Shown here piece after piece: positions 600 to 64,000 of a stretch of 64,000 bases of DNA (its first letter is position 1; the number at the start of each line of letters is the position of its first letter). The notes beneath the pieces were generated by a model, which was given only the letters and a program-made list of their open reading frames with translations, did no database searches and was not told the DNA's origin. Source of the stretch: Eledone cirrhosa (taxonomy: Eukaryota); contig OZ024756.1 in NCBI GenBank assembly GCA_964016885.1, forward strand, positions 25,358,001 through 25,422,000, given 5' to 3'. The position numbers and the translations under genes were made by a program.

Positions 600-1335
600 T
601 ACACTCACAAAGATTCAGCATGCTTTCTCCAATTGTCCCGGTCGAGCATGACATTTCTCAGTTCGTCGATGTTAACAATGTTGGCATCTCTCAGCAGGGT
701 ATCAATGAATGAGACGGCCTGTCTTCCTACGATTCTTCATCTGACCGCTGGTTTTCAGAGCACAAGTTGTGATGCTATCTCTTCTGGATGACGGATGCAG
801 TGCCCAGCCAGTTTCACTCGTCTGCAGGCAACTTTTTTTTTTAGACTGGTGGTAGTGAGCTGTCTCTGTCTAAGGCGGGTAAAATTCCCGAGATCCATGG
901 ACGAGTTCTCTCCAGCGGTCTCTGTCCCTCATTATCGCTGCCATGTCCTGCATCTCCAACAGACCAGTGTCTGTCCTTAGGGCATCAACATACGTTAACC
1001 TTGGTCTTCCTCTTCTAGTGTGTCCATGTAGGGGCTCCCAAAGGAGTACTGAGTGCAATGTCAACTCTGGATGTCGGTGATCATGTCCAGCTAACCTCAG
1101 TCTCCTCTGTGTCACTTTTGAGCTGACTTTTAGGATGCTCCCATACAGCTCTGAGTTTTTCATCCTCAGTGTATACTGATTAATGTTCAGAGCCATCCTC
1201 AGCATTCTCGTGTAGCACCCATCCACCATCTGAGTGAGTTTCTTGGTAGTGAGCTGTATAGTTCCTTATTTGTCCGCTTCTGTTTCCAAGAAATGTTGAG
1301 AGCCATTCTCAGCATACTTGCGTAACATCCGCTTC
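600..1335 (-). mobile_element. Degenerate RTE-type LINE 3' fragment (host), interrupted by a second LINE
   Basis: Minus strand reads GCYASMLRMALNISWKQKRTNKELYSSL / RRVKLAGHCIRHPEE / GRQAVSFIDTLLRDAN...MLDRDNWRK, typical of the C-terminus downstream of a LINE RT domain. Confidence 0.7.
864..1243 (-). mobile_element. 5'-truncated RTE-type LINE 3' end inserted into the related LINE
   Basis: ORF 870..1229 DGCYTRMLRMALN...RRLRLAGH...LLWEP...RRGRPRLTYVD...DRDRWR; 14-bp direct repeat TGGTAGTGAGCTGT at 850-863 and 1244-1257 (TSD). Confidence 0.8.
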
Positions 1336-9596: not shown

Positions 9597-12476
9597 TTCT
9601 AAAATACAGTATATTATGTTTGACAAAATATAGCATATTATGTTTGACAAAATGTAGCATATTATGTTTGACAAAATATAGCATATTATGTCTGACAAAA
9701 TATAGCATATTATGTTTCACAAAATATAGCATATTATGTTTGACAAAATATAGCATATTATGTTTGACAAAATGTAGCATATTATGTTTGACAAAATATA
9801 GCATATTATGTCTGACAAAATATAGCACATTATGTTTGACAAAATATAGCATATTATGTTTGACAAAATATAGCATATTATGTTGATAGAATATAGCATA
9901 TTATGTCTGACAAAATATAGCATATTATGTCTGACAAAATATAGCATATTATGTTTGATAGAATATAGCATATTATGTTTGACAAAATGTAGCATATTAT
10001 GTTTGACAAAATATAGCATATTATGTTGATAGAATATAGCATATTATGTCTGACAAAATATAGCATATTATGTTTGACAAAATATAGCATATTATGTTTG
10101 ATAGAATATAGCATATTATGTTTGACAAAATGTAGCATATTATGTTTGACAAAATATAGCATATTATGTTTGACAAAATATAGCATATTATGTCTGACAA
10201 AATATAGCATATTATGTTTGACAAAATGTAGCATATTATGTCTGACAAAATGTAGCATATTATGTTTGATAGAATATAGCATATTATGTTTGACAAAATG
10301 TAGCATATTATGTTTGACAAAATGTAGCATATTATGTTTGACAAAATATAGCATATTATGTTTGACAAAATATAGCATATTATGTTTGACAAAATATAGC
10401 ATATTATGTTTGACAAAATATAGCATATTATGTCTGACAAAATATAGCATATTATGTTTGACAAAATGTAGCATATTATGTCTGACAAAATGTAGCATAT
10501 TATGTTTGATAGAATATAGCATATTATGTTTGACAAAATGTAGCATATTATGTTTGACAAAATATAGCATATTATGTTTGACAAAATATAGCATATTATG
10601 TTTGACAAAATATAGCATATTATGTTTGACAAAATATAGCATATTATGTCTGACAAAATATAGCATATTATGTTTGATAGAATATAGCATATTATGTCTG
10701 ACAAAATATAGCATATTATGTTTGACAAAATATAGCATATTATGTTTGACAAAATATAGCATATTATGTTTGACAAAATATAGCATATTATGTCTGACAA
10801 AATATAGCATATTATGTCTGACAAAATATAGCATATTATGTTTGACAAAATGTAGCATATTATGTTTGATAGAATATAGCATATTATGTTTGACAAAATA
10901 TAGCATATTATGTTTGATAGAATATAACATATTATGTTTGACAAAATGTAGCATATTATGTTTGATAGAATATAGCATATTATGTCTGACAAAATATAGC
11001 ATATTATGTCTGACAAAATATAGCATATTATGTTTGACAAAATATAGCATATTATGTTTGATAGAATATAGCATATTATGTTTGATAGAATATAGCATAT
11101 TATGTTTGACAAAATATAGCATATTATGTCTGACAAAATATAGCATATTATGTTTGATAGAATATAGCATATTATGTTTGATAGAATATAGCATATTATG
11201 TCTGACAAAATATAGCATATTATGTTTGATAGAATATAGCATATTATGTCTGACAAAATATAGCATATTATGTTTGATAGAATATAGCCTATTATGTCTG
11301 ACAAAATATAGCATATTATGTTTGACAAAATATAGCATATTATGTTTGACAAAATATAGCATATTATGTTTGACAAAATATAGCATATTATGTTTGATAG
11401 AATATAGCATATTATGTCTGACAAAATATAGCATATTATGTTTAACAAAATGTAGCATATTATGTCTGACAAAATATAGCATATTATGTTTGATAGAATA
11501 TAGCATATTATGTTTGATAGAATATAGCATATTATGTCTGACAAAATATAGCATATTATGTCTGGCAAAATATAGCATATTATGTTTGACAAAATGTAGC
11601 ATATTATGTTTGATAGAATATAGCATATTATGTTTGATAGAATATAGCATATTATGTCTGACAAAATGTAGCATATTATGTTTGATAGAATATAGCATAT
11701 TATGTCTGACAAAATATAGCATATTATGTTTGACAAAATATAGCATATTATGTTTGATAGAATATAGCATATTGTTTGACAAAATATAGCATATTATGTT
11801 TGATAGAATATAGCATATCATCTGACAAAATATAGCATATTATGTCTGACAAAATATAGCATATTATGTTTGATAGAATATAGCATATTATGTCTGACAA
11901 AATATAGCATATTATGTCTGACAAAATATAGCATATTATGTTTGATAGAATATAGCATATTATGTCTGACAAAATATAGCATATTATGTCTGACAAAATA
12001 TAGCATATTATGTTTGATAGAATATAGCATATTATGTCTGACAAAATATAGCATATTATGTTTGATAGAATATAGCATATTATGTCTGACAAAATATAGC
12101 ATATTATGTTTGATAGAATATAGCATATTATGTTTGACAAAATATAGCATATTATGTTTGATAGAATATAGCATATTATGTCTGACAAAATATAGCATAT
12201 TATGTTTGATAGAATATAGCATATTATGTTTGACAAAATATAGCATATTATGTTTGATAGAATATAGCATATTATGTCTGACAAAATATAGCATATTATG
12301 TTTGATAGAATATAGCATATTATGTCTGACAAAATATAGCATATTATGTTTGATAGAATATAGCATATTATGTTTGACAAAATATAGCATATTATGTTTG
12401 ATAGAATATAGCATATTATGTTTGACAAAATATAGCATATTATGTTTGATAGAATATAGCATATTATGTTTGACAC
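9597..12476. repeat. 24-bp minisatellite AAAATATAGCATATTATGTTTGAC, about 120 copies
   Basis: 24-bp period with variants TTT/TCT, GACAAAAT/GATAGAAT and ATAG/GTAG; explains the KHNMLYFV and SNIICYIL ORFs. Confidence 0.97.
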
Positions 12477-12648
12477 AATCGAAATAAATACCGCTAAGCA
12501 TTTCGCCTAATTACAAATAAGTTAGAGGATGGTGACGGCTGGAACATCTTTGATCATAGATTTGCCAAGTTAGAGGCTGATATAAGTATAGACAGCATCA
12601 TCAGCAACCATATTATTACTAACACGCACACATAACATGCAGCCCCCC

Positions 12649-27779: not shown

Positions 27780-27894
27780 TCGGTTCAAATCCCGCCAATG
27801 TTGACTTTGCCTTTCATCCTTACGGGGTCGATAAAATAAAGTACCAGTAATGCGCTGGGTATTTGCTGGCCTTGTGCCTAAAGTAGAAACAATT
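27780..27894 (+). mobile_element. Family-1 SINE 3' half abutting the truncated Helitron helicase
   Basis: GTTCAAATCCCGCC...GGCCTTGTGCCTAAAGTAGAAACAATT. Confidence 0.85.
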
Positions 27895-30095
27895 ATCTAC
27901 TGTATCAGAGCTTCTGTAGATTATTTCATGACTAGGGAACTTGTTGACCATGAACTCATTCACCAATCTTCCTGCATCATTTGTTGGAGTGATAATGGCT
28001 CTATTTGCAAGCCATGGTGGGTTTATGTAGTTTCCTGGAAGATATGTATACACAAAATCACACAGTCCAGACACATTACCATATTCCAGACAAAGTTCAT
28101 TTGGCAGAAGAATTGTGAATGCACCTACAGTTGGAACAGTTGGAATGTTACCATTTCCCACATCAAGAAGGTAGTTTGCAAACTGTCTTTCATCAGAATC
28201 CTCTGCATTAATTAACCGTTGATTGGTTGTCATCTCCATGGTTTCTACATAGTCCCAGAGATAGGATCTCTTGATGGTTGCCTCAACTATTTGTGGTCTA
28301 GCACCATGACGTACAACTGGAAGAATTTTCTTCCAGTCACCAGATTGTAATACTGTTAGACCACCAAATGGCTTTTTGCAATCTCGAACATCTTTGAAGC
28401 TCCTGTCAAGGCATTCAAAGATATGCTTATGTCCCATACCTATCTCATGAATGATTAGCAGGTCAGCTTGCTGCATATGTTTACTTGTGTCATCCCTCTT
28501 TGTGAAGAAGCAAGTTGATTCAGCAGTCACATTGAGAGGAATCTTGCACTTGGAATGAAGAGTTCTACCTTTGTGAAGCAAAGTGGCTGCTATTCCAGAT
28601 ATGGCAGCGGCAAGTGAAATTTTTTTTTTAGATCGGAGGTAATCCAATAGGATGTTTATGACATAGGTCTTTCCTGCACCTGCACTTGCATTCAAGCAGA
28701 AAATTCTGCCTTCATTTTCATTTACAGAGGTGATTACTTTGTGAAAAATAACCAGTTGCTCAGGATTCAATGTTGGCAGAAGTTCATTTATATTTGCTTG
28801 CAGTTGGTGTGTATTGAAACCAGTTTCTGCCACACGAACCCTGTTGATTTCTGGTATGGCAACAATAGTTGGGTCTGGCCGAGGCAGTCCATAGTTGGTA
28901 TGAATGTTCAAGCCATCATGTTGAAGTCTTTGTTGGATCTTCTGTAGAACAATCTGCTCGGTTTGCATGGACATGACTTGCTCACGACGTTCATGCATGA
29001 TATCCTCTGCAAGACAATTCTTCCATTTCTCCCAGAACTGCAGAGGGTCATTTGGAATGCAGTACAATAAAATGGTGCAGAAGATCTCTCGCAGCTGAGA
29101 ACCAAGCGTATGGATGAGGCCTCTTCCATAGCTTTGTCTTTTTCTCCATCTTCATCTAACAGACCAAGTTTCCTGCATGCTTCTTGGAATGTTGGAAATT
29201 CAACTCCTTCAATTGTCCTCAAATCTGTGTATGAAGTTGACCCAACCTTGTGATGTAGGATCATTCTGAGGTAATGTAATTCAGATTGATGTCTACTGGA
29301 ATGCGTCTAAGAGATTCACCCATAAATTGTTGATCACCATCCAGATGTCCCTTTTTTCTTCTTTGCCACTTTTTGTTTGTCCAAGTGAAATATTTAGGAA
29401 TATCAATATACAATATGTTTGTGCCAGTGGATCTCTAATATTCAGTTGAAAATATTCCGTCAACTTAGTCATTGGTTGTCCTCTATAAACAACACTTTCT
29501 TCCTGCCCTCGCTCAGACACGACCATTTGTTTCCCAGGTAAATGGCAAGGCAACTTTTCAACTGGCGGTTTTCGATGATGTAATGGAAATTTATAGATTC
29601 TCCAGTATGCTTCACTGGCTGAGGTGTACCGCGGATTGATATAGGTCTCAATCTCATTTTGGGCATGGACACAATTTCCTTGATCATCCTTAATAGTGAA
29701 AGTTATCTTTTCTGATCCTTTTGTGATGTACTTATATAAGTACTTAACAGCCTTGACACTGTGGACAACCTCACAATTGATGTGGCACTGATATCTCAAT
29801 GAGAGAAAAGGGTTGTATGGAACAATCCAACGATTATCAACAGTAAATTCTTGACCTTTAAGTTGTCTCTCCCTTCTTCTATACTCGGGAAAGGAATTTT
29901 CGGCAACAAATGTGGTTTGTCTGAATGCATTGGGATAACGTTTTGAGCAATGGCGTTGTTGTCCTAGCCCTTCCATACATGAGCACATCATATTAGCTTG
30001 TCCACATTAGCCATGAATGTTGCAGGATGTGATGATCGTATGCAGAATTGGATTGGTCTCTTTATCAGGAATCTCACAGTACACTACCTGATCAA

Positions 30096-33073: not shown

Positions 33074-33395
33074 GAACGAGAGTGCAAGAGAAGGAGAGGG
33101 AGAAAATTAACCGATACCAGGACCTAAAGTGGGAGGTGAAAAGGATTTGGAACTGCCATGAAGTCAAAGTGATCCCGATTGTCATAGGCGCACTGGGGAC
33201 TATCTCCAAAAGTTTCCAGGGATGGTTAAAGAAAATCGGCCCCTTCACGCTTTTTGGAACGCTTCAAAAGGCATGCTTGCTTGGAACAGCAAGAACCCTC
33301 CGATACGTCCTGAATATCTGAGGCTGCAGGTAGTGGCTTGATATTCAATCCAACGGACTTTCCAGTTAACCAACATCAATGACTGAGATTCAAGG
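33073..33395 (+). mobile_element. 5'-truncated R4/Dong-type non-LTR retrotransposon 3' end, copy 1
   Basis: QEKEREKINRYQDLKWEVKRIW...VIPIVIGALGTI...LQKACLLGTARTLRYVLNI*; embedded in (TAA)n. Confidence 0.85.
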
Positions 33396-33404
33396 AATAA
33401 CAAC

Positions 33405-33455
<51 letters not shown>

Positions 33456-33457
<2 letters not shown>

Positions 33458-33980
33458 TCCACTGGCACCTATGCAAAGTAAACAATTTACCACATTCTGA
33501 GAAGTGGTATGAGCATAAGCCAGAGTCGGTGATAGAAAACGATCAGGTGAAGGTGCTGTGGGATTTTAGGATACAGACGGACAAGAAACTGGAACACAAT
33601 AGACCTGACCTGGTGGTTTTGGACAAGGAAAAAAGATCGTGCCTGATTGTGGATGTGGCCTGCCCATTCGACACGAGAGTGCAAGAGAAGGATAGGGAGA
33701 AAATTAACCGATACCAGGACTTAAAGAGGGAGGTAAAAAGGATTTGGAACTGCCATGAAGTCAAAGTGGTCCCGATTGTCATAGGCGCACTAGGTACTAT
33801 CTCAAAAAGTTTCCAGGGATGGTTAAAGCTACGCTTTTTGGAACGCTTCAAAAGGCATGCTTGATGGGAACAGCAAGAACCCTCCGATACGTCCTGAATA
33901 TCTGAGGCTGCAGGTAGTGGCTTGATATTCATTTCAACAAACTTTCCAGTTAACTAACATCAATGACTGAGACTCAAAGA
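33456..33980 (+). mobile_element. 5'-truncated R4/Dong-type non-LTR retrotransposon 3' end with restriction-like endonuclease domain, copy 2
   Basis: HWHLCK...KWYEHKPESVIEN...VLWDFRIQTDK..HNRPDLVV...IVDVACPFD...EKINRYQDL (PD..D REL motif); (TAA)n on both sides. Confidence 0.9.
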
Positions 33981-34165
33981 ACAATAATAATAATAATAAT
34001 AATAATGATAATAATAATAATAGTAATAATAATAAATTTGAAGACTAAAATCCAAAGTGCGCTCGATAAGGATAAATATATATCAAATATATAAGAACCG
34101 TAGAGTTTCAGAAGATCCAGTTAAGGGTGAAAGCAGCGATTCTTTGCTTAAACTTTAATCTGTTA

Positions 34166-34277
<112 letters not shown>

Positions 34278-34415
34278 AAGGTTAAACAAGGTTCAATGAA
34301 TAAATCAAAGAATGGGTTTTACAATAGATTGGAAGCACTCAACAGTAATGGTTTTCCGGAGTTATTAATATTAATTCGAAATATTAACAAAAATAGACAT
34401 TCGTGTGATCAAGTA

Positions 34416-34482
34416 TATTTTATTATACATATTTCAGAGGTACTGAGGTAACTTCAACAGTACGTCCTCATCAGATAAAATA
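34416..34482 (-). ncRNA. Type I hammerhead ribozyme inside a short TA-inserted element (about 34275-34600)
   Basis: Minus strand: TATTTTAT CTGATGA GGACGTACTG..CAGTACCTCT GAAA TATGTA TA ATAAAATA; perfect 8-bp stem I, intact core, paired stem II. Confidence 0.75.
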
Positions 34483-34612
34483 AGATGATGCATGACATAC
34501 CCTGACATAGTCATGGTAGTGACTACCATGACTGAATCTTAACCATCTACTTGATCACACGAATGTCTATTTTTGTTAATATTTCGAATTAATATTATAT
34601 ATATATATATAT

Positions 34613-34719: not shown

Positions 34720-34721
<2 letters not shown>
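34613..34721 (+). mobile_element. Internally deleted family-F element directly left of the 310-bp array
   Basis: Left arm GACCCCGACGGCAGAGCTCAAGCCGTTTCGACGG joined to tail TGCGTTATGGTCCATCTGGTTCCTTACCAC. Confidence 0.75.
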
Positions 34722-34750
<29 letters not shown>

Positions 34751-34907
34751 TGGAATAAATGCTCTGAAATAGCGATATATATATGAATATAGACATAGAA
34801 TATTCGAAAATATTCTGTATGTTTATAATAAACATTTTGAAGACCTAATCGCTATAGAATAGAATACGTCACGTATTACAATTAGATTCTCGATAAAAGC
34901 AAGGGAA

Positions 34908-34950
34908 GTAATCTACGCGTTTCATTCTTGTTAGAATTCATCAGGACTAC
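34908..34950 (-). ncRNA. Type I hammerhead ribozyme, first of 8 minus-strand copies (period 310)
   Basis: Reverse complement reads GTAGTC CTGATGA ATTCT-AACA-AGAAT GAAA CGCG TA GATTAC. Confidence 0.85.
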
Positions 34951-37156
34951 ATATCCAGTGCTTTTATCGAGAATGACACAGCTAGAGACTTATAGAATAC
35001 TTAGCTGTGTACAGGAACTGGTTTGAAAGAGCGGTTGCCGGTCCGGCAGAAATTAGAAATTGGAATAAATGCTCTGAAATAGCGATATATATATGAATAT
35101 AGACATAGAATATTCGAAAATATTCTGTATGTTTATAATAAACATTTTGAAGACCTAATCGCTATAGAATAGAATACGTCACGTATTACAATTAGATTCT
35201 CGATAAAAGCAAGGGAAGTAATCTACGCGTTTCATTCTTGTTAGAATTCATCAGGACTACATATCCAGTGCTTTTATCGAGAATGACACAGCTAGAGACT
35301 TATAGAATACTTAGCTGTGTACAGGAACTGGTTTGAAAGAGCGGTTGCCGGTCCGGCAGAAATTAGAAATTGGAATAAATGCTCTGAAATAGCGATATAT
35401 ATATGAATATAGACATAGAATATTCGAAAATATTCTGTATGTTTATAATAAACATTTTGAAGACCTAATCGCTATAGAATAGAATACGTCACGTATTACA
35501 ATTAGATTCTCGATAAAAGCAAGGGAAGTAATCTACGCGTTTCATTCTTGTTAGAATTCATCAGGACTACATATCCAGTGCTTTTATCGAGAATGACACA
35601 GCTAGAGACTTATAGAATACTTAGCTGTGTACAGGAACTGGTTTGAAAGAGCGGTTGCCGGTCCGGCAGAAATTAGAAATTGGAATAAATGCTCTGAAAT
35701 AGCGATATATATATGAATATAGACATAGAATATTCGAAAATATTCTGTATGTTTATAATAAACATTTTGAAGACCTAATCGCTATAGAATAGAATACGTC
35801 ACGTATTACAATTAGATTCTCGATAAAAGCAAGGGAAGTAATCTACGCGTTTCATTCTTGTTAGAATTCATCAGGACTACATATCCAGTGCTTTTATCGA
35901 GAATGACACAGCTAGAGACTTATAGAATACTTAGCTGTGTACAGGAACTGGTTTGAAAGAGCGGTTGCCGGTCCGGCAGAAATTAGAAATTGGAATAAAT
36001 GCTCTGAAATAGCGATATATATATGAATATAGACATAGAATATTCGAAAATATTCTGTATGTTTATAATAAACATTTTGAAGACCTAATCGCTATAGAAT
36101 AGAATACGTCACGTATTACAATTAGATTCTCGATAAAAGCAAGGGAAGTAATCTACGCGTTTCATTCTTGTTAGAATTCATCAGGACTACATATCCAGTG
36201 CTTTTATCGAGAATGACACAGCTAGAGACTTATAGAATACTTAGCTGTGTACAGGAACTGGTTTGAAAGAGCGGTTGCCGGTCCGGCAGAAATTAGAAAT
36301 TGGAATAAATGCTCTGAAATAGCGATATATATATGAATATAGACATAGAATATTCGAAAATATTCTGTATGTTTATAATAAACATTTTGAAGACCTAATC
36401 GCTATAGAATAGAATACGTCACGTATTACAATTAGATTCTCGATAAAAGCAAGGGAAGTAATCTACGCGTTTCATTCTTGTTAGAATTCATCAGGACTAC
36501 ATATCCAGTGCTTTTATCGAGAATGACACAGCTAGAGACTTATAGAATACTTAGCTGTGTACAGGAACTGGTTTGAAAGAGCGGTTGCCGGTCCGGCAGA
36601 AATTAGAAATTGGAATAAATGCTCTGAAATAGCGATATATATATGAATATAGACATAGAATATTCGAAAATATTCTGTATGTTTATAATAAACATTTTGA
36701 AGACCTAATCGCTATAGAATAGAATACGTCACGTATTACAATTAGATTCTCGATAAAAGCAAGGGAAGTAATCTACGCGTTTCATTCTTGTTAGAATTCA
36801 TCAGGACTACATATCCAGTGCTTTTATCGAGAATGACACAGCTAGAGACTTATAGAATACTTAGCTGTGTACAGGAACTGGTTTGAAAGAGCGGTTGCCG
36901 GTCCGGCAGAAATTAGAAATTGGAATAAATGCTCTGAAATAGCGATATATATATGAATATAGACATAGAATATTCGAAAATATTCTGTATGTTTATAATA
37001 AACATTTTGAAGACCTAATCGCTATAGAATAGAATACGTCACGTATTACAATTAGATTCTCGATAAAAGCAAGGGAAGTAATCTACGCGTTTCATTCTTG
37101 TTAGAATTCATCAGGACTACATATCCAGTGTCATTCTCGATAAAAGCACTGGATAT

Positions 37157-37199
37157 GTAGTCCTGATGAATTCTAACAAGAATGAAACGCGTAGATTAC
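37157..37199 (+). ncRNA. Type I hammerhead ribozyme, first of 4 plus-strand copies (also at 37467, 37777 and 38087)
   Basis: Stem I GTAGTC/GATTAC, core CTGATGA 37163-37169, stem II ATTCT/AGAAT, GAAA 37184-37187, palindromic stem III ACGCGT, predicted cleavage after GUA at 37193; stem I extends by a perfect 16-bp helix 37133-37148/37206-37221. Confidence 0.88.
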
Positions 37200-38249
37200 T
37201 TCCCTTGCTTTTATCGAGAATCTAATTGTAATACGTGACGTATTCTATTCTATAGCGATTAGGTCTTCAAAATGTTTATTATAAACATACAGAATATTTT
37301 CGAATATTCTATGTCTATATTCATATATATATCGCTATTTCAGAGCATTTATTCCAATTTCTAATTTCTGCCGGACCGGCAACCGCTCTTTCAAACCAGT
37401 TCCTGTACACAGCTAAGTATTCTATAAGTCTCTAGCTGTGTCATTCTCGATAAAAGCACTGGATATGTAGTCCTGATGAATTCTAACAAGAATGAAACGC
37501 GTAGATTACTTCCCTTGCTTTTATCGAGAATCTAATTGTAATACGTGACGTATTCTATTCTATAGCGATTAGGTCTTCAAAATGTTTATTATAAACATAC
37601 AGAATATTTTCGAATATTCTATGTCTATATTCATATATATATCGCTATTTCAGAGCATTTATTCCAATTTCTAATTTCTGCCGGACCGGCAACCGCTCTT
37701 TCAAACCAGTTCCTGTACACAGCTAAGTATTCTATAAGTCTCTAGCTGTGTCATTCTCGATAAAAGCACTGGATATGTAGTCCTGATGAATTCTAACAAG
37801 AATGAAACGCGTAGATTACTTCCCTTGCTTTTATCGAGAATCTAATTGTAATACGTGACGTATTCTATTCTATAGCGATTAGGTCTTCAAAATGTTTATT
37901 ATAAACATACAGAATATTTTCGAATATTCTATGTCTATATTCATATATATATCGCTATTTCAGAGCATTTATTCCAATTTCTAATTTCTGCCGGACCGGC
38001 AACCGCTCTTTCAAACCAGTTCCTGTACACAGCTAAGTATTCTATAAGTCTCTAGCTGTGTCATTCTCGATAAAAGCACTGGATATGTAGTCCTGATGAA
38101 TTCTAACAAGAATGAAACGCGTAGATTACTTCCCTTGCTTTTATCGAGAATCTAATTGTAATACGTGACGTATTCTATTCTATAGCGATTAGGTCTTCAA
38201 AATGTTTATTATAAACATACAGAATATTTTCGAATATTCTATGTCTATA

Positions 38250-38290
<41 letters not shown>

Positions 38291-44976: not shown

Positions 44977-45661
44977 GATGGCGGTCCATCGACATGATAA
45001 TGTTTCATCTATTGGCCACAAGGGCCGACATATAGGAGACAATACAATAGACGGGGACAGTGGGGGGTTTTATATACGAATCGAGTAAAAAATAAGAAAA
45101 CAATAACAATAAAGAAGAAAAATACAACAATGAAAAATTCCTTAATAGGGGGTGTGAGTGGGGTTCCATCGACATGATAATGAAATAGAATTCGAGCACA
45201 ATATTTTACTGGGCCGGATTACAGAAGACTCGGATGATTTCATTGTGGATGTCCTCTATTTCACCCCTTGTGTCATTCGCTGAGAGAAGAATATGAATTG
45301 TTCGGGAGAGAGAGGAGGTGAGTTGGGGGAGGGAGAGAGTGGGAGGGGAGAGGGAGATAAATATATATCTAATAACAACTCTTTTGACCTTAGATATATT
45401 AAAAGCTAGAGTAACAAAACATTGCCCAACTAATTTCAGAATATTAATGGCAAACGGCCCTTGTTTCTTCTTCTTGAAAAACCTCATCCAGCAACACGCT
45501 GAATCTCTCTGAGATTTGCGTTAAGAGTGCCCATGTCTGTGGAATGCTCAGGCACTTGCACGTTGACTTCAAGAGCAGACTATTCCATTGTGCCAATAAC
45601 AACTGGGGCACTCAGGTCCAGTACTCACACAGTTGTTTGTTTGTTTTAAACAACAAATAAT

Positions 45662-46417
45662 TTTCTACTTTCTGGCACAAGGCCAGCAATTACCTAGTAC
45701 ATTACTGGTACTTTATTTTATCGACCCCGTAAGGATGAAATGCAAAGTTGACCTCGGCGGGATTTGAACTCAGAATGGCAAGGGCCGTAACTCTATGCGT
45801 CAAAGCATAACGTCCGACCCTCTAGCGATACTGCCAACCCACCAACAAATAATTGTTTCTACTTTAGGCACAAGGCCAGCAAATACCCAGTGCATTACTG
45901 GTACTTTATTTTATCGACCCCGTAAGGATGAAAGGCAAAGTCAACCTCGGCGGGATTTGAACTCAGATCGTAAAGGGATGTAACTATGCTGGAAAGCATG
46001 GCGTCCGACCCTCTACCGATACTGCCAACAAATAATTGTTTCTACTTTAGGCACAAGGCCAGCAATTACCCAGTGCATTACTGGTACTTTATTTTATCGA
46101 CCCCGTAAGGATGAAAGGCAAAGTCAACCTCGGCGGGATTTGAACTCAGATCGTAAAGGGACGTAACTATGCTGGAAAGCATGGCGTCCGACCCTCTACC
46201 GATACTGCCAAATGATTTCTAGTATAGGCACAAGGCCAGTAATTTGGAGGAAGGCGAAAGTCGATTAAATCGACCTCAGTACGTTACTGGTACTTTATTT
46301 TATCGACCCCGTAAGGATGAAAGGCAAAGTTAACCTTTGAACTCAGACCGTAAAGGGTCGTAACTCTGAGGCAAAGCATGGTGCCCGACGCTCTAACGAT
46401 ACTGCCAATCCACCGCC
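45662..46417 (-). mobile_element. Stack of four head-to-tail family-1 SINEs
   Basis: Copies at about 45662, 45855, 46037 and 46213; outer 22-bp direct repeat TTTGTTTTAAACAACAAATAAT at 45640-45661 and 46418-46439. Confidence 0.9.
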
Positions 46418-48465: not shown

Positions 48466-48726
48466 ATATATATATACATATATATATATATACAATATAT
48501 TAACAAATGGAAACTATATTTATAAAACCATATTTATTTCATTATACATATTTCAAGGGCCACCAAAGTAAACTATGGTGCGCTTTCATCAGATAAAATA
48601 TAATATAGGTTAGTTTTATAAATAAATATTGACATACCCTTAAAAAATGCAACCATTCTGGTTGAAATCTTCTGGATAGTTTTTTAAGGGTATGTCAATA
48701 TTTATTTATAAAACTAACCTATATTA

Positions 48727-48792
48727 TATTTTATCTGATGAAAGCGCACCATAGTTTACTTTGGTGGCCCTTGAAATATGTATAATGAAATA
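48727..48792 (+). ncRNA. Type I hammerhead ribozyme in foldback element 48494-48915 (inverted copy at about 48533-48600)
   Basis: TATTTTAT CTGATGA AAGCGCACCA..TGGTGGCCCTT GAAA TATGTA TA ATGAAATA; 8-bp stem I with one G-U pair. Confidence 0.72.
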
Positions 48793-48909
48793 AATATGGT
48801 TTTATAAATATGGTTTTATAGTTTCCATTTGCTAATGTATTGTATATTTACTCCAATAATTTGTTGAGTGCTTTATATCAGTTATAAAAATATTTTGCTT
48901 GTTGTATCC

Positions 48910-48955
<46 letters not shown>

Positions 48956-53829: not shown

Positions 53830-54823
<994 letters not shown>

Positions 54824-63047: not shown

Positions 63048-64000
63048 ATCAAAAGATGGTTAAATGAGTTCCATGTATTTTATTATGCGCATATTATGCT
63101 TCTTATCCGATATCTGCATTGCTTTATTGTACTACAATAAAACTCACCTCCTACATATATATATATATATATATATAATATATAAGAACAAAAGATGGTT
63201 AAAAGAGTTCCATGTATTTTATTATGCGCATTTCAAAAACAAATATCATCATGCAATAATATTTGTGTTTTCATCAGATAAAACAGGAAGACATGATATG
63301 AAGGTTAAAAAACACTTGTGGATAGTGCAGTTTTAAATCAACATATGAAAAGTAGTTTTAGATTGATGTGTGATATTGGGAAAAATATTTTATTTTGAGG
63401 GGGGGGGATGAAAAGGAGGAGGAGATGAGAGTAAAAAGCGGAGAGGGAGGAGTATAATGAGGAAGGATGAGATAGGAGGAGAGATGGGTGATAGAGAGAG
63501 AGAGAGGTAGCTTTTATAACTGAGAAAGATATATTGTTTTACATAGAGAGGTTGAAAACCGTTGGAAGATAATGTATAAATTAAAAGAATTTGAAAATTA
63601 ACGAAGAGAAATAATGTAAAGTTAAGGTTTGAATATTGAGGGGTTTAATAATATGTGCGATGAAAAGAAAATGTTAATATGTATTAAGAATAATATTTAA
63701 GGGTTTAATAACATGTGCGATGGAAAAGAAAAAGTTAATATGTATTAAGAATAATATATAATATGTGCGATGGAAGGAAAATGTTGATATGTATTATTAA
63801 AAAGAACAACATGTAATTTAAGTAAGGATATATTGTGAGATGAGCATGAATGAGTTAGATGAAAGGGAGAAAAAAATAATGAATTGAGGATGAATAATCT
63901 AACGTCAAAAAAATGTTTGTTTACGAAGGATTTTTACAAGGTGATATAGAGTAAGAATGTATTGTATTATGTAATAATTGATTCTATGTTAGGCAACAGT

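Follow-up and report, generated by a model that had tools for sequence, protein, structure and literature searches.

A dispersed 310-bp hammerhead repeat of Eledone cirrhosa, inserted as two divergent multimeric arms: a probable non-LTR retrozyme mobilised by a Penelope-like element

Results

Layout of the locus

The window, that is, the whole 64,000-nucleotide stretch of E. cirrhosa DNA analysed, contains 12 type I hammerhead cores at an exact period of 310 bp, distributed in two divergent arms. The features are given below, unit phases being numbered from the base after the cleavage site (37194 = phase 1).

34720..34747: (TA)n target, left flank
34747..37130, minus strand: left arm, 7.69 perfect 310-bp units with 8 hammerheads
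37084, 36774, 36464, 36154, 35844, 35534, 35224 and 34914, minus strand: left-arm cleavage, after each of these positions
37128..37130, strand not applicable: inversion junction with 3-bp microhomology GTG, the arms pointing away from it
37128..38262, plus strand: right arm, 3.66 units with 4 hammerheads
37193, 37503, 37813 and 38123, plus strand: right-arm cleavage, after each of these positions
37194..37503, plus strand: one cleavage-to-cleavage monomer of 310 nt, the predicted circular RNA
37291..37310, plus strand: hairpin with a UUCG loop (phases 98-117), just 5′ of the short start site
37323..37358, plus strand: tail of ~35 nt (phases ~130-165), between the two inferred reverse transcription (RT) start sites
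37332-37347, plus strand: motif TCGCTATTTCAGAGCA, inside the tail and nearly invariant across related families
37441..37535, plus strand: type I hammerhead with an extended stem I (6 bp, internal loops, 16-bp helix), helix II with an AACA loop and a minimal palindromic helix III
38253..38287: (TA)n target, right flank

The first-pass annotation of this DNA had described a single tandem array. The 310-bp tandem units stand, but they do not form one head-to-tail array, since the minus strand carries eight of the cores and the plus strand the other four. Its reading of the unit itself was borne out. The repeat had been said to show no variation, and the ten complete cleavage-to-cleavage monomers of the window are all identical; all 12 cores, with the GUA cleavage site placed after 37193, are present; (TA)n lies on both flanks; and no ORF had been seen in the unit (GC 33.9%), the longest stop-to-stop frame of which, when circularised, is 59 aa. 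A conserved ORF was rejected on that length and because families A and B do not have the same short ATG frame. Neither the unit nor the arms, which are unit sequence from end to end, were found to hold an RT or endonuclease ORF, so the locus is not an autonomous Penelope-like element (PLE). Nor were terminal direct repeats (LTR) found beyond the units themselves.

The left arm has its outer end at phase 167, the long, tail-bearing start site (usually at phase 165), and its inner end at phase 264. The right arm runs from an inner end at phase 245 to an outer end that blends into (TA)n at phase 130-139 (38253-38262), which corresponds to the short start site. Rfam miRNA and psbJ matches obtained in the window were discarded as artefacts of the palindromic junction between the arms. 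Elsewhere in the window, the repeat at 45651-46211 appears similar to an octopod SINE.

The hammerhead and its minimal helix III

The 95-nt hammerhead motif, including the perfect 16-bp stem I helix already annotated, folds at −32.4 kcal/mol (z = −6.4), and none of 200 shuffled sequences folds as well. The Rfam search suggested in the first-pass annotation matched model HH9 (clan CL00010) at 12 of 12 cores, but only at 23 bits (E 0.025), under the gathering threshold of 52. That annotation had also called the core complete. This holds, but helix III is minimal and consists of one A-U pair capped by the palindrome CGCG, without a fold alone and with a 6-bp duplex between two copies. Such a helix III, of one pair and a palindromic tetraloop, is predicted here from sequence and resembles that of axolotl HHR_Amex1 (PMC7229834); according to the same source, axolotl ribozymes with this type of helix III cleave poorly as monomers and efficiently as dimers. 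Most copies (43/63 loci) have a U-U mismatch at the helix II base, like that of HHR_Amex2. Given its minimal palindromic helix III, cleavage of the E. cirrhosa ribozyme probably needs dimers, and a monomer transcript may fail to cleave even with a genuine element.

Crossings of the cleavage site were counted with anchors away from the site itself. The core is intact in 614 of the 618 crossings and damaged in the other four. Recurrent variants concentrate at positions which the ribozyme tolerates, namely N7 (phase 284), the helix II base (287) and loop II (294, 295), while those in stem I (phases 276, 277 and 2) preserve pairing as wobble pairs. In a related family, B, the core pair C3-G8 is replaced by U3-A8. 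The variants at tolerated positions and the swap in family B suggest selection on cleavage.

A young family with older relatives

The exact 32-nt core occurs 3,948 times in the 3.0-Gb genome, and a relaxed core 17,925 times, reversed controls giving 0; the family totals ~5.6 Mb, or 0.19% of the genome. End-specific patterns retrieved from the genome 1,041 long ends, at phase 165 and followed by (AT)n, and 1,158 short ends, in the AT run at phase 130-139. Because the mean insertion is 2.7 kb and the first 31 Mb of one contig (C1) hold 17 clusters, insertions number roughly 1,000-2,000. They are very young; divergence within loci is 0.07%. Metagenome contigs gave 0 matches to the core.

All family loci examined other than the window come from contig C1, 40 having been picked for the presence of both ends. 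Beyond the first 12 loci selected by the core, sequences were taken from 40 of the 52 paired loci that remained, from 19 of 26 unpaired loci and from one very long locus.

The family agrees with the retrozyme description in its 310-bp unit (range 150-450 bp), GC content under 50%, lack of ORF and LTR, and dispersed multimers. The reading as a non-LTR retrozyme spread by rolling-circle RT, put forward in the first-pass annotation, thus gains support from the dispersion of the 17,925 cores and from the more than 1,000 fixed ends of each type. A single-locus satellite with a decayed core in its other copies, which would have spoken against that reading, was not what we found, the family being dispersed and the core largely intact at the crossings. 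Ordinary satellite DNA (head-to-tail arrays, unfixed ends, few loci) was likewise rejected in view of the inverted arms, the fixed ends and the >1,000 loci.

Families B and C are older relatives (units of 283-320 bp) that share phases ~59-235 at 70-80%. Their hammerhead stems are different; stem I, for instance, is extended by 15-16 bp that are unrelated in sequence. Families A, B and C have in common the hairpin before the short site, the motif and the two-ended inverted layout. Older relatives with different stems and the same hairpin, motif and layout indicate, by sequence comparison, that the lineage is old and was amplified in waves.

Two divergent arms at most insertions

Pairing of ends was analysed for the 87 long ends which, out of 100 listed, lie within range of the 100 listed short ends. 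A divergent pair with a short end within 16 kb is formed by 57 of them; 28 have no short end in range and two show another geometry. Among the 19 fetched loci classed as unpaired, 14 are two-armed, four single-armed and one is not covered to its start. Selection by the core, not by the ends, gave two-armed structures at 10 of 12 loci, and clusters not selected by ends show minus-then-plus cores in 10/17 and plus-then-minus cores in 0/17.

Identical units are hard to count, and the junction of the window is known from the assembly alone; the inversion or the copy number could in principle be an assembly or library artefact arising from fold-back chimeric reads or collapsed repeats. We consider the probability of this negligible. 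Arms are unequal, flanks differ, haplotypes are private to loci, a target site duplication (TSD) occurs, and two end phases are fixed at >1,000 loci. Moreover, short-read contigs of one sequencing run, which may be the assembly's own sample, reproduce the short end (phase 139 into (AT)n in 11 contigs) as well as the head-to-tail joint. The phase-165 end was absent among the loose ends shown for those contigs.

Inner junctions were analysed in a set of 54, out of 60 base-level rows. Those left out are L031, which has a double junction, L085, where two insertions adjoin, L095, for which mapping failed, L089 and L094, both truncated at the edge of the sequence taken, and L067, an odd row. Inner junction phases are uniform (KS p = 0.29), and inner ends fall at the cleavage site in 4 of 108 cases, 2.4 being expected. 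A pile-up of 5′ ends at that site, hinted at by BLAST edges, was gone after base-level mapping. Arms overlap at 33 junctions, 8 are blunt and 13 contain insertions; microhomology of at least 2 nt is present in 24 of the 41 junctions without insertion (7.4 expected). At 45 of the 54, each arm is longer than one unit; the longest arms found reach 27-30 units. The lengths of the two arms correlate weakly (rho 0.32, p 0.017).

Self-priming has been proposed for the inverted repeats of PLEs (PMC3846280). Applied to this family, a single priming at phase 165 would be followed by self-priming or fold-back of the cDNA, and the inverted arm would anneal to the target by (AT)5. The window junction, a near-palindrome with a 16-nt spacer, fits such a course, as do the haplotype always shared by both arms and the greater average length of the long-end arm (4.2 vs 3.0 units, p = 0.019). 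However, near-palindromes, taken as junctions whose two phases lie at most 30 nt apart, are not in excess of chance (9/54 vs 10.6 expected). The supposed second arm, at the short end, is the longer one in 21/54 loci, by more than one unit in 12 (the long-end arm is longer by that margin in 24), and the short end is fixed at ~130 even with the AT run interrupted or absent. We therefore regard fold-back as improbable; junction and length data favour two independent primings on a single-unit template over self-priming.

Two fixed outer ends and their target

The outer ends are fixed at two unit positions, ~130 and 165, which bracket ~35 nt. The hairpin at phases 98-117 is a candidate protein-binding element. 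In family B its counterpart has GCAA as the loop, and some of the pairs are compensatory; two-sided changes affect 5 of 49 predicted pairs, in a comparison of only five sequences with an unfavourable covariation term.

Where internal units have C at phase 131, 32 of 55 short ends have T and one has A, the 55 being the count after removal of two internal units miscalled as ends; one of them enters a non-TA flank directly. From the terminal T it follows that in most cases the point where the target is joined is phase 130 or earlier. In family C, the units of which have no AT run, the arrays end, by eye, where the short end does (L188, L192, L193, L197, L199, L203). The T ends at phase 131 and these family C loci identify the short end as a start site close to phase 130, not as mere (AT)5 annealing.

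Pure TA tracts adjoin 53 long ends, where their median length is 22 nt, and also 49 short ends, most loci having been selected by patterns that include TA; among the 12 core-selected loci, L037 is the only one without (TA)n. The insertion at L037, the only clear target outside (TA)n, lies between copies of a 12-bp TSD, which is what priming from each of two staggered 3′ overhangs would leave. Among 54 loci this is the single unambiguous TSD; elsewhere (TA)n masks it, with a possible one of 34 bp at L083. In non-LTR retrozymes a TSD, where there is one, is longer than 4 bp. Telomerase-like addition of TA at the short end was rejected, since no difference in tract length was seen (p = 0.18).

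The most informative feature, the pair of inverted arms with its two fixed start sites, is absent from the first-pass annotation, and it points to a PLE as the source of the borrowed RT.

Both arms probably derive from one unit

The 502 full units of 64 loci yield 34 majority haplotypes; loci drawn at random in pairs are identical in 5% of cases. Both arms have the same majority haplotype in 37/43 loci; in five others the arms are distinguished by single-unit changes alone, and L091 is a mixture. Arms differ on average by 0.24 positions and loci by 3.9. At 12 of the 43 loci a rare variant is present in every unit of both arms, seven of these loci having at least two units per arm (L039, 16 units; L073, 22 units). 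A new variant fills both arms only via passage through one unit. Two haplotypes, with switching within an arm, are found at L091 and L099. Crossings of the cleavage site are scar-free, as only 13/618 differ in the surrounding 26 nt, which is about background. Repeated scar-free passage across that site is what a ligated circle gives.

The daughter of a homogeneous parent array would look the same, as uniform inner ends and arms of one haplotype also fit an uncleaved multimer. PLE twin priming could thus use as its usual template a linear, uncleaved multimeric transcript, circles being rare or absent and the ribozyme mostly passive. Apart from its fit with a homogeneous parent, this possibility draws on the weak cleavage that the minimal helix III predicts, on in vitro insertion being unchanged by hammerhead mutants, with unprocessed RNA as the main substrate, as described in PMC11167929, and on the failure of 8 of 9 predicted Xenopus retrozymes to cleave, reported in 10.64898/2026.07.22.740005. 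Nevertheless, the variants fixed in every unit of both arms and the 34 haplotypes need a single-unit bottleneck, and therefore each haplotype must at least have been founded through a monomer. Furthermore, copying of linear arrays can only shorten them, whereas arms of 27-30 units are found, and the variants suggestive of selection on cleavage speak against a passive ribozyme. A linear template as the usual one appears unlikely to us, although we give it more weight than the other alternatives.

Long arrays L050 and L102 contain repeated variant units, and therefore unit number can change after insertion. Local satellite-like amplification has been proposed in 10.64898/2026.07.22.740005. Short inverted PLE-type insertions might accordingly have expanded later as DNA, by unequal exchange, extrachromosomal circles or gene conversion, that is, by satellite dynamics. 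This would be needed in both arms of most of >1,000 loci within 0.07% divergence; an arm of less than one unit cannot become tandem without a multimeric or circular template, and in typical arrays deviant units are singletons. We hold this explanation to be very improbable, slightly more so than fold-back.

Search for a Penelope-like partner

PLEs of the same genome that encode RT and GIY-YIG are likewise arranged in divergent pairs (L144, L153), and their short and long ends lie in (TA)n. Using blastn and nhmmer, the tail motif was found in 0 of 48 GIY-YIG loci, obtained after scoring the best 150 of 10,597 Pfam GIY-YIG candidates. No homology to PLE pLTRs was detected in those 48 loci, the only common sequence being that of helix II with the hammerhead of one PLE family (L144, L147, L154). 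None of 50 motif-variant loci contains a PLE ORF in cis, and three exclusion patterns (6/6, 30/180 and 20/782 matches examined) returned only family members, relatives and unrelated flanks.

Discussion

The insertions typically consist of two divergent multimeric arms of one haplotype, with outer ends ~35 nt apart in the unit and a random inner junction. We propose, as the likely explanation, that they are a young non-autonomous non-LTR retrozyme mobilised by a PLE, the 310-nt circle being reverse-transcribed in rolling-circle fashion from both ends of a staggered cut (twin priming). Arrays would be transcribed, and adjacent hammerheads would pair through the palindromic helix III and cleave as dimers, freeing 310-nt monomers. 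A host ligase would circularise these, and a lone circle, cleaving itself poorly, would persist. The PLE RT-GIY-YIG protein would bind the circle near the hairpin and the tail motif and, as the ends suggest, make a staggered cut in (TA)n. Each target 3′ end would then prime RT, one at phase ~165 and the other at phase ~130, and each RT would circle several times. The two cDNAs would halt at arbitrary points and be joined by microhomology or short insertions, and the resulting arrays, when of at least three units, could release new monomers.

In L1 twin priming, both target ends prime cDNA on the RNA, and the 5′-inverted segment is joined by microhomology. Unlike L1, where the second site is variable, the template linear and the arms at most one RNA long, the family described here has both sites fixed and both arms multimeric.

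The features of metazoan non-LTR retrozymes are recovered here: non-coding, low-GC tandem units of ~300 bp with one type I hammerhead each, many loci and co-occurring PLEs (PMC7229834; 10.64898/2026.07.22.740005). Rolling-circle RT of circles is a proposal made in PMC7229834 and PMC7761336, and the latter describes retrozyme repeats as lacking a conserved motif that points to the partner. Unlike those retrozymes, described as direct tandem repeats, most sampled insertions in E. cirrhosa have two divergent multimeric arms, two fixed ends, a tail and a conserved motif. The word "inverted" does not occur in the main text of PMC7229834, and in the available text of 10.64898/2026.07.22.740005 it occurs only within a reference title.

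The second resemblance is to EN+ PLEs. As described in PMC8557442, PMC3846280 and PMC11167929, these have a head-to-head inverted, 5′-truncated copy, a tail of 30-40 bp at one end only, microsatellite or AT-rich targets, a hammerhead upstream of two internal RT start sites and a TSD of ~8-12 bp; mobilisation in trans via cis-acting pLTR sequences is considered in the same sources. On AT-rich DNA, a PLE protein was shown to cut the two strands and to extend each of them from two internal RNA starts bracketing the tail, and it is predicted to be a dimer (PMC11167929). The origin of the tandem or inverted ends and of the tail is named as an open question in PMC8557442. Unlike EN+ PLEs, the family has no RT or endonuclease ORF, and both arms are multimers of the 310-nt unit, so that template passes can be counted.

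Retrozymes and the inverted-plus-tail layout of PLEs were already known; in the papers searched, the two-armed architecture in a retrozyme is apparently new. In the literature searched, neither this family nor retrozyme insertions with two inverted arms were found described; subscription journals, Repbase/Dfam and supplements lie outside it and may contain such an account or the consensus of the partner.

A broader proposal is tentative, and we lean somewhat against it: the two RT subunits of one PLE dimer might roll simultaneously round one 310-nt circle, starting from the two ends of a double-strand cut, and in all EN+ PLEs the inverted pLTR and the tail might generally arise in this way. 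The family would then be a tape on which RT processivity, template switching (L091, L099) and the circle sequence of each event are recorded more than 1,000 times.

The family carries the integration signature of PLEs on a non-coding 310-nt unit, and its multimeric arms let the models be separated from DNA alone. It bears on two questions: how animal retrozymes are mobilised, by which retroelement and whether through rolling-circle RT of circles, and how PLE ends arise. To the first it brings genomic support for the proposed retrozyme life cycle, and to the second a testable account of the inverted ends, together with a minimal cis element (hairpin, 16-nt motif and two start sites) that suits the in vitro PLE assay already established. 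For E. cirrhosa itself, a wave of ~5.6 Mb of near-identical long palindromes could yield long hairpin RNA or be unstable.

Other repeats and PLE-type insertions in the window

Besides the 310-bp hammerhead array, the window carries several other repeats, among them insertions of Penelope-like element (PLE) type.

Repeats and PLE-type insertions in the window
870-1265, LINE ORF2 end
9601-12479, minisatellite, 24-bp unit, 120 copies
27820-30006, minus strand, broken PIF1 helicase frames (Pfam PF05970), Helitron-like
33370-33990, non-LTR retrotransposon, 3' end, bearing a putative restriction-like endonuclease motif and terminating in (AAT)n
34275-34597, tiny inverted PLE-type insertion
~48470-48915, PLE-type fragment whose hammerhead cores at 48592 and 48735 form an inverted pair
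53860-54652, mariner-like transposase fragments
~63050-63290, PLE-type fragment with hammerhead core at 63277

A Pfam search of the element at 33370-33990 gave no match. The insertion at 34275-34597 lies 150 bp to the left of the 310-bp array, and both its long and its short end sit in (TA)n; its hammerhead, with the core at 34474 on the minus strand, differs from that of the array. This family was found a second time at locus L169. Many of the fetched loci are flanked by relatives of the fragments at ~48470-48915 and ~63050-63290.

The 310-nt unit in sequencing runs

Between 66 and 100% of the sampled words were present in each of 20 runs (X1-X20), which come from 16 studies and carry many different organism codes. 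X4 and X6 each gave one 340-nt contig, self-closing after 310 nt and of a single haplotype, whereas the genome holds many. The unit most likely reached these runs through cross-contamination, either from an abundant circle or from DNA; its presence in species other than Eledone cirrhosa is possible.

Unusual arrays and related retrozyme families

In two arrays (L091 and L099) the haplotype switches part-way along one arm, possibly by an RT switch between two circles, or by conversion. At L031 (G000:C1:1241340-1241520) the inversion junction is double, with a short duplicated segment, which suggests that template switching was repeated before joining.

Older related families (B, C and subfamilies at 93-95% identity) were found at L061, L100, L104, L134-L138 and L157-L206. 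The tail region is common to all of them, the hammerhead stems being swapped; in family B the core pair is U3-A8. L181 has an intermediate look.

PLEs elsewhere in the genome

At least seven PLE families are visible across L103-L156. In one of them (L144, L147 and L154) the helix II stem sequence of the hammerhead is the same as in the 310-bp retrozyme and the tail differs; its inverted insertions are very short, with both ends present. Three kb downstream of a PLE ORF, a 511-bp tandem repeat (L149:7900-9001) carries a hammerhead built like that of the main array, with a U-U helix II base, an AACA loop and a palindromic minimal helix III, and is probably another retrozyme family. Apparently intact PLE ORFs with RT and GIY-YIG are found at L139:3809-6622 (929 aa as scanned) and L141:1775-5062 (1025 aa as scanned), and both are candidates for in vitro work.
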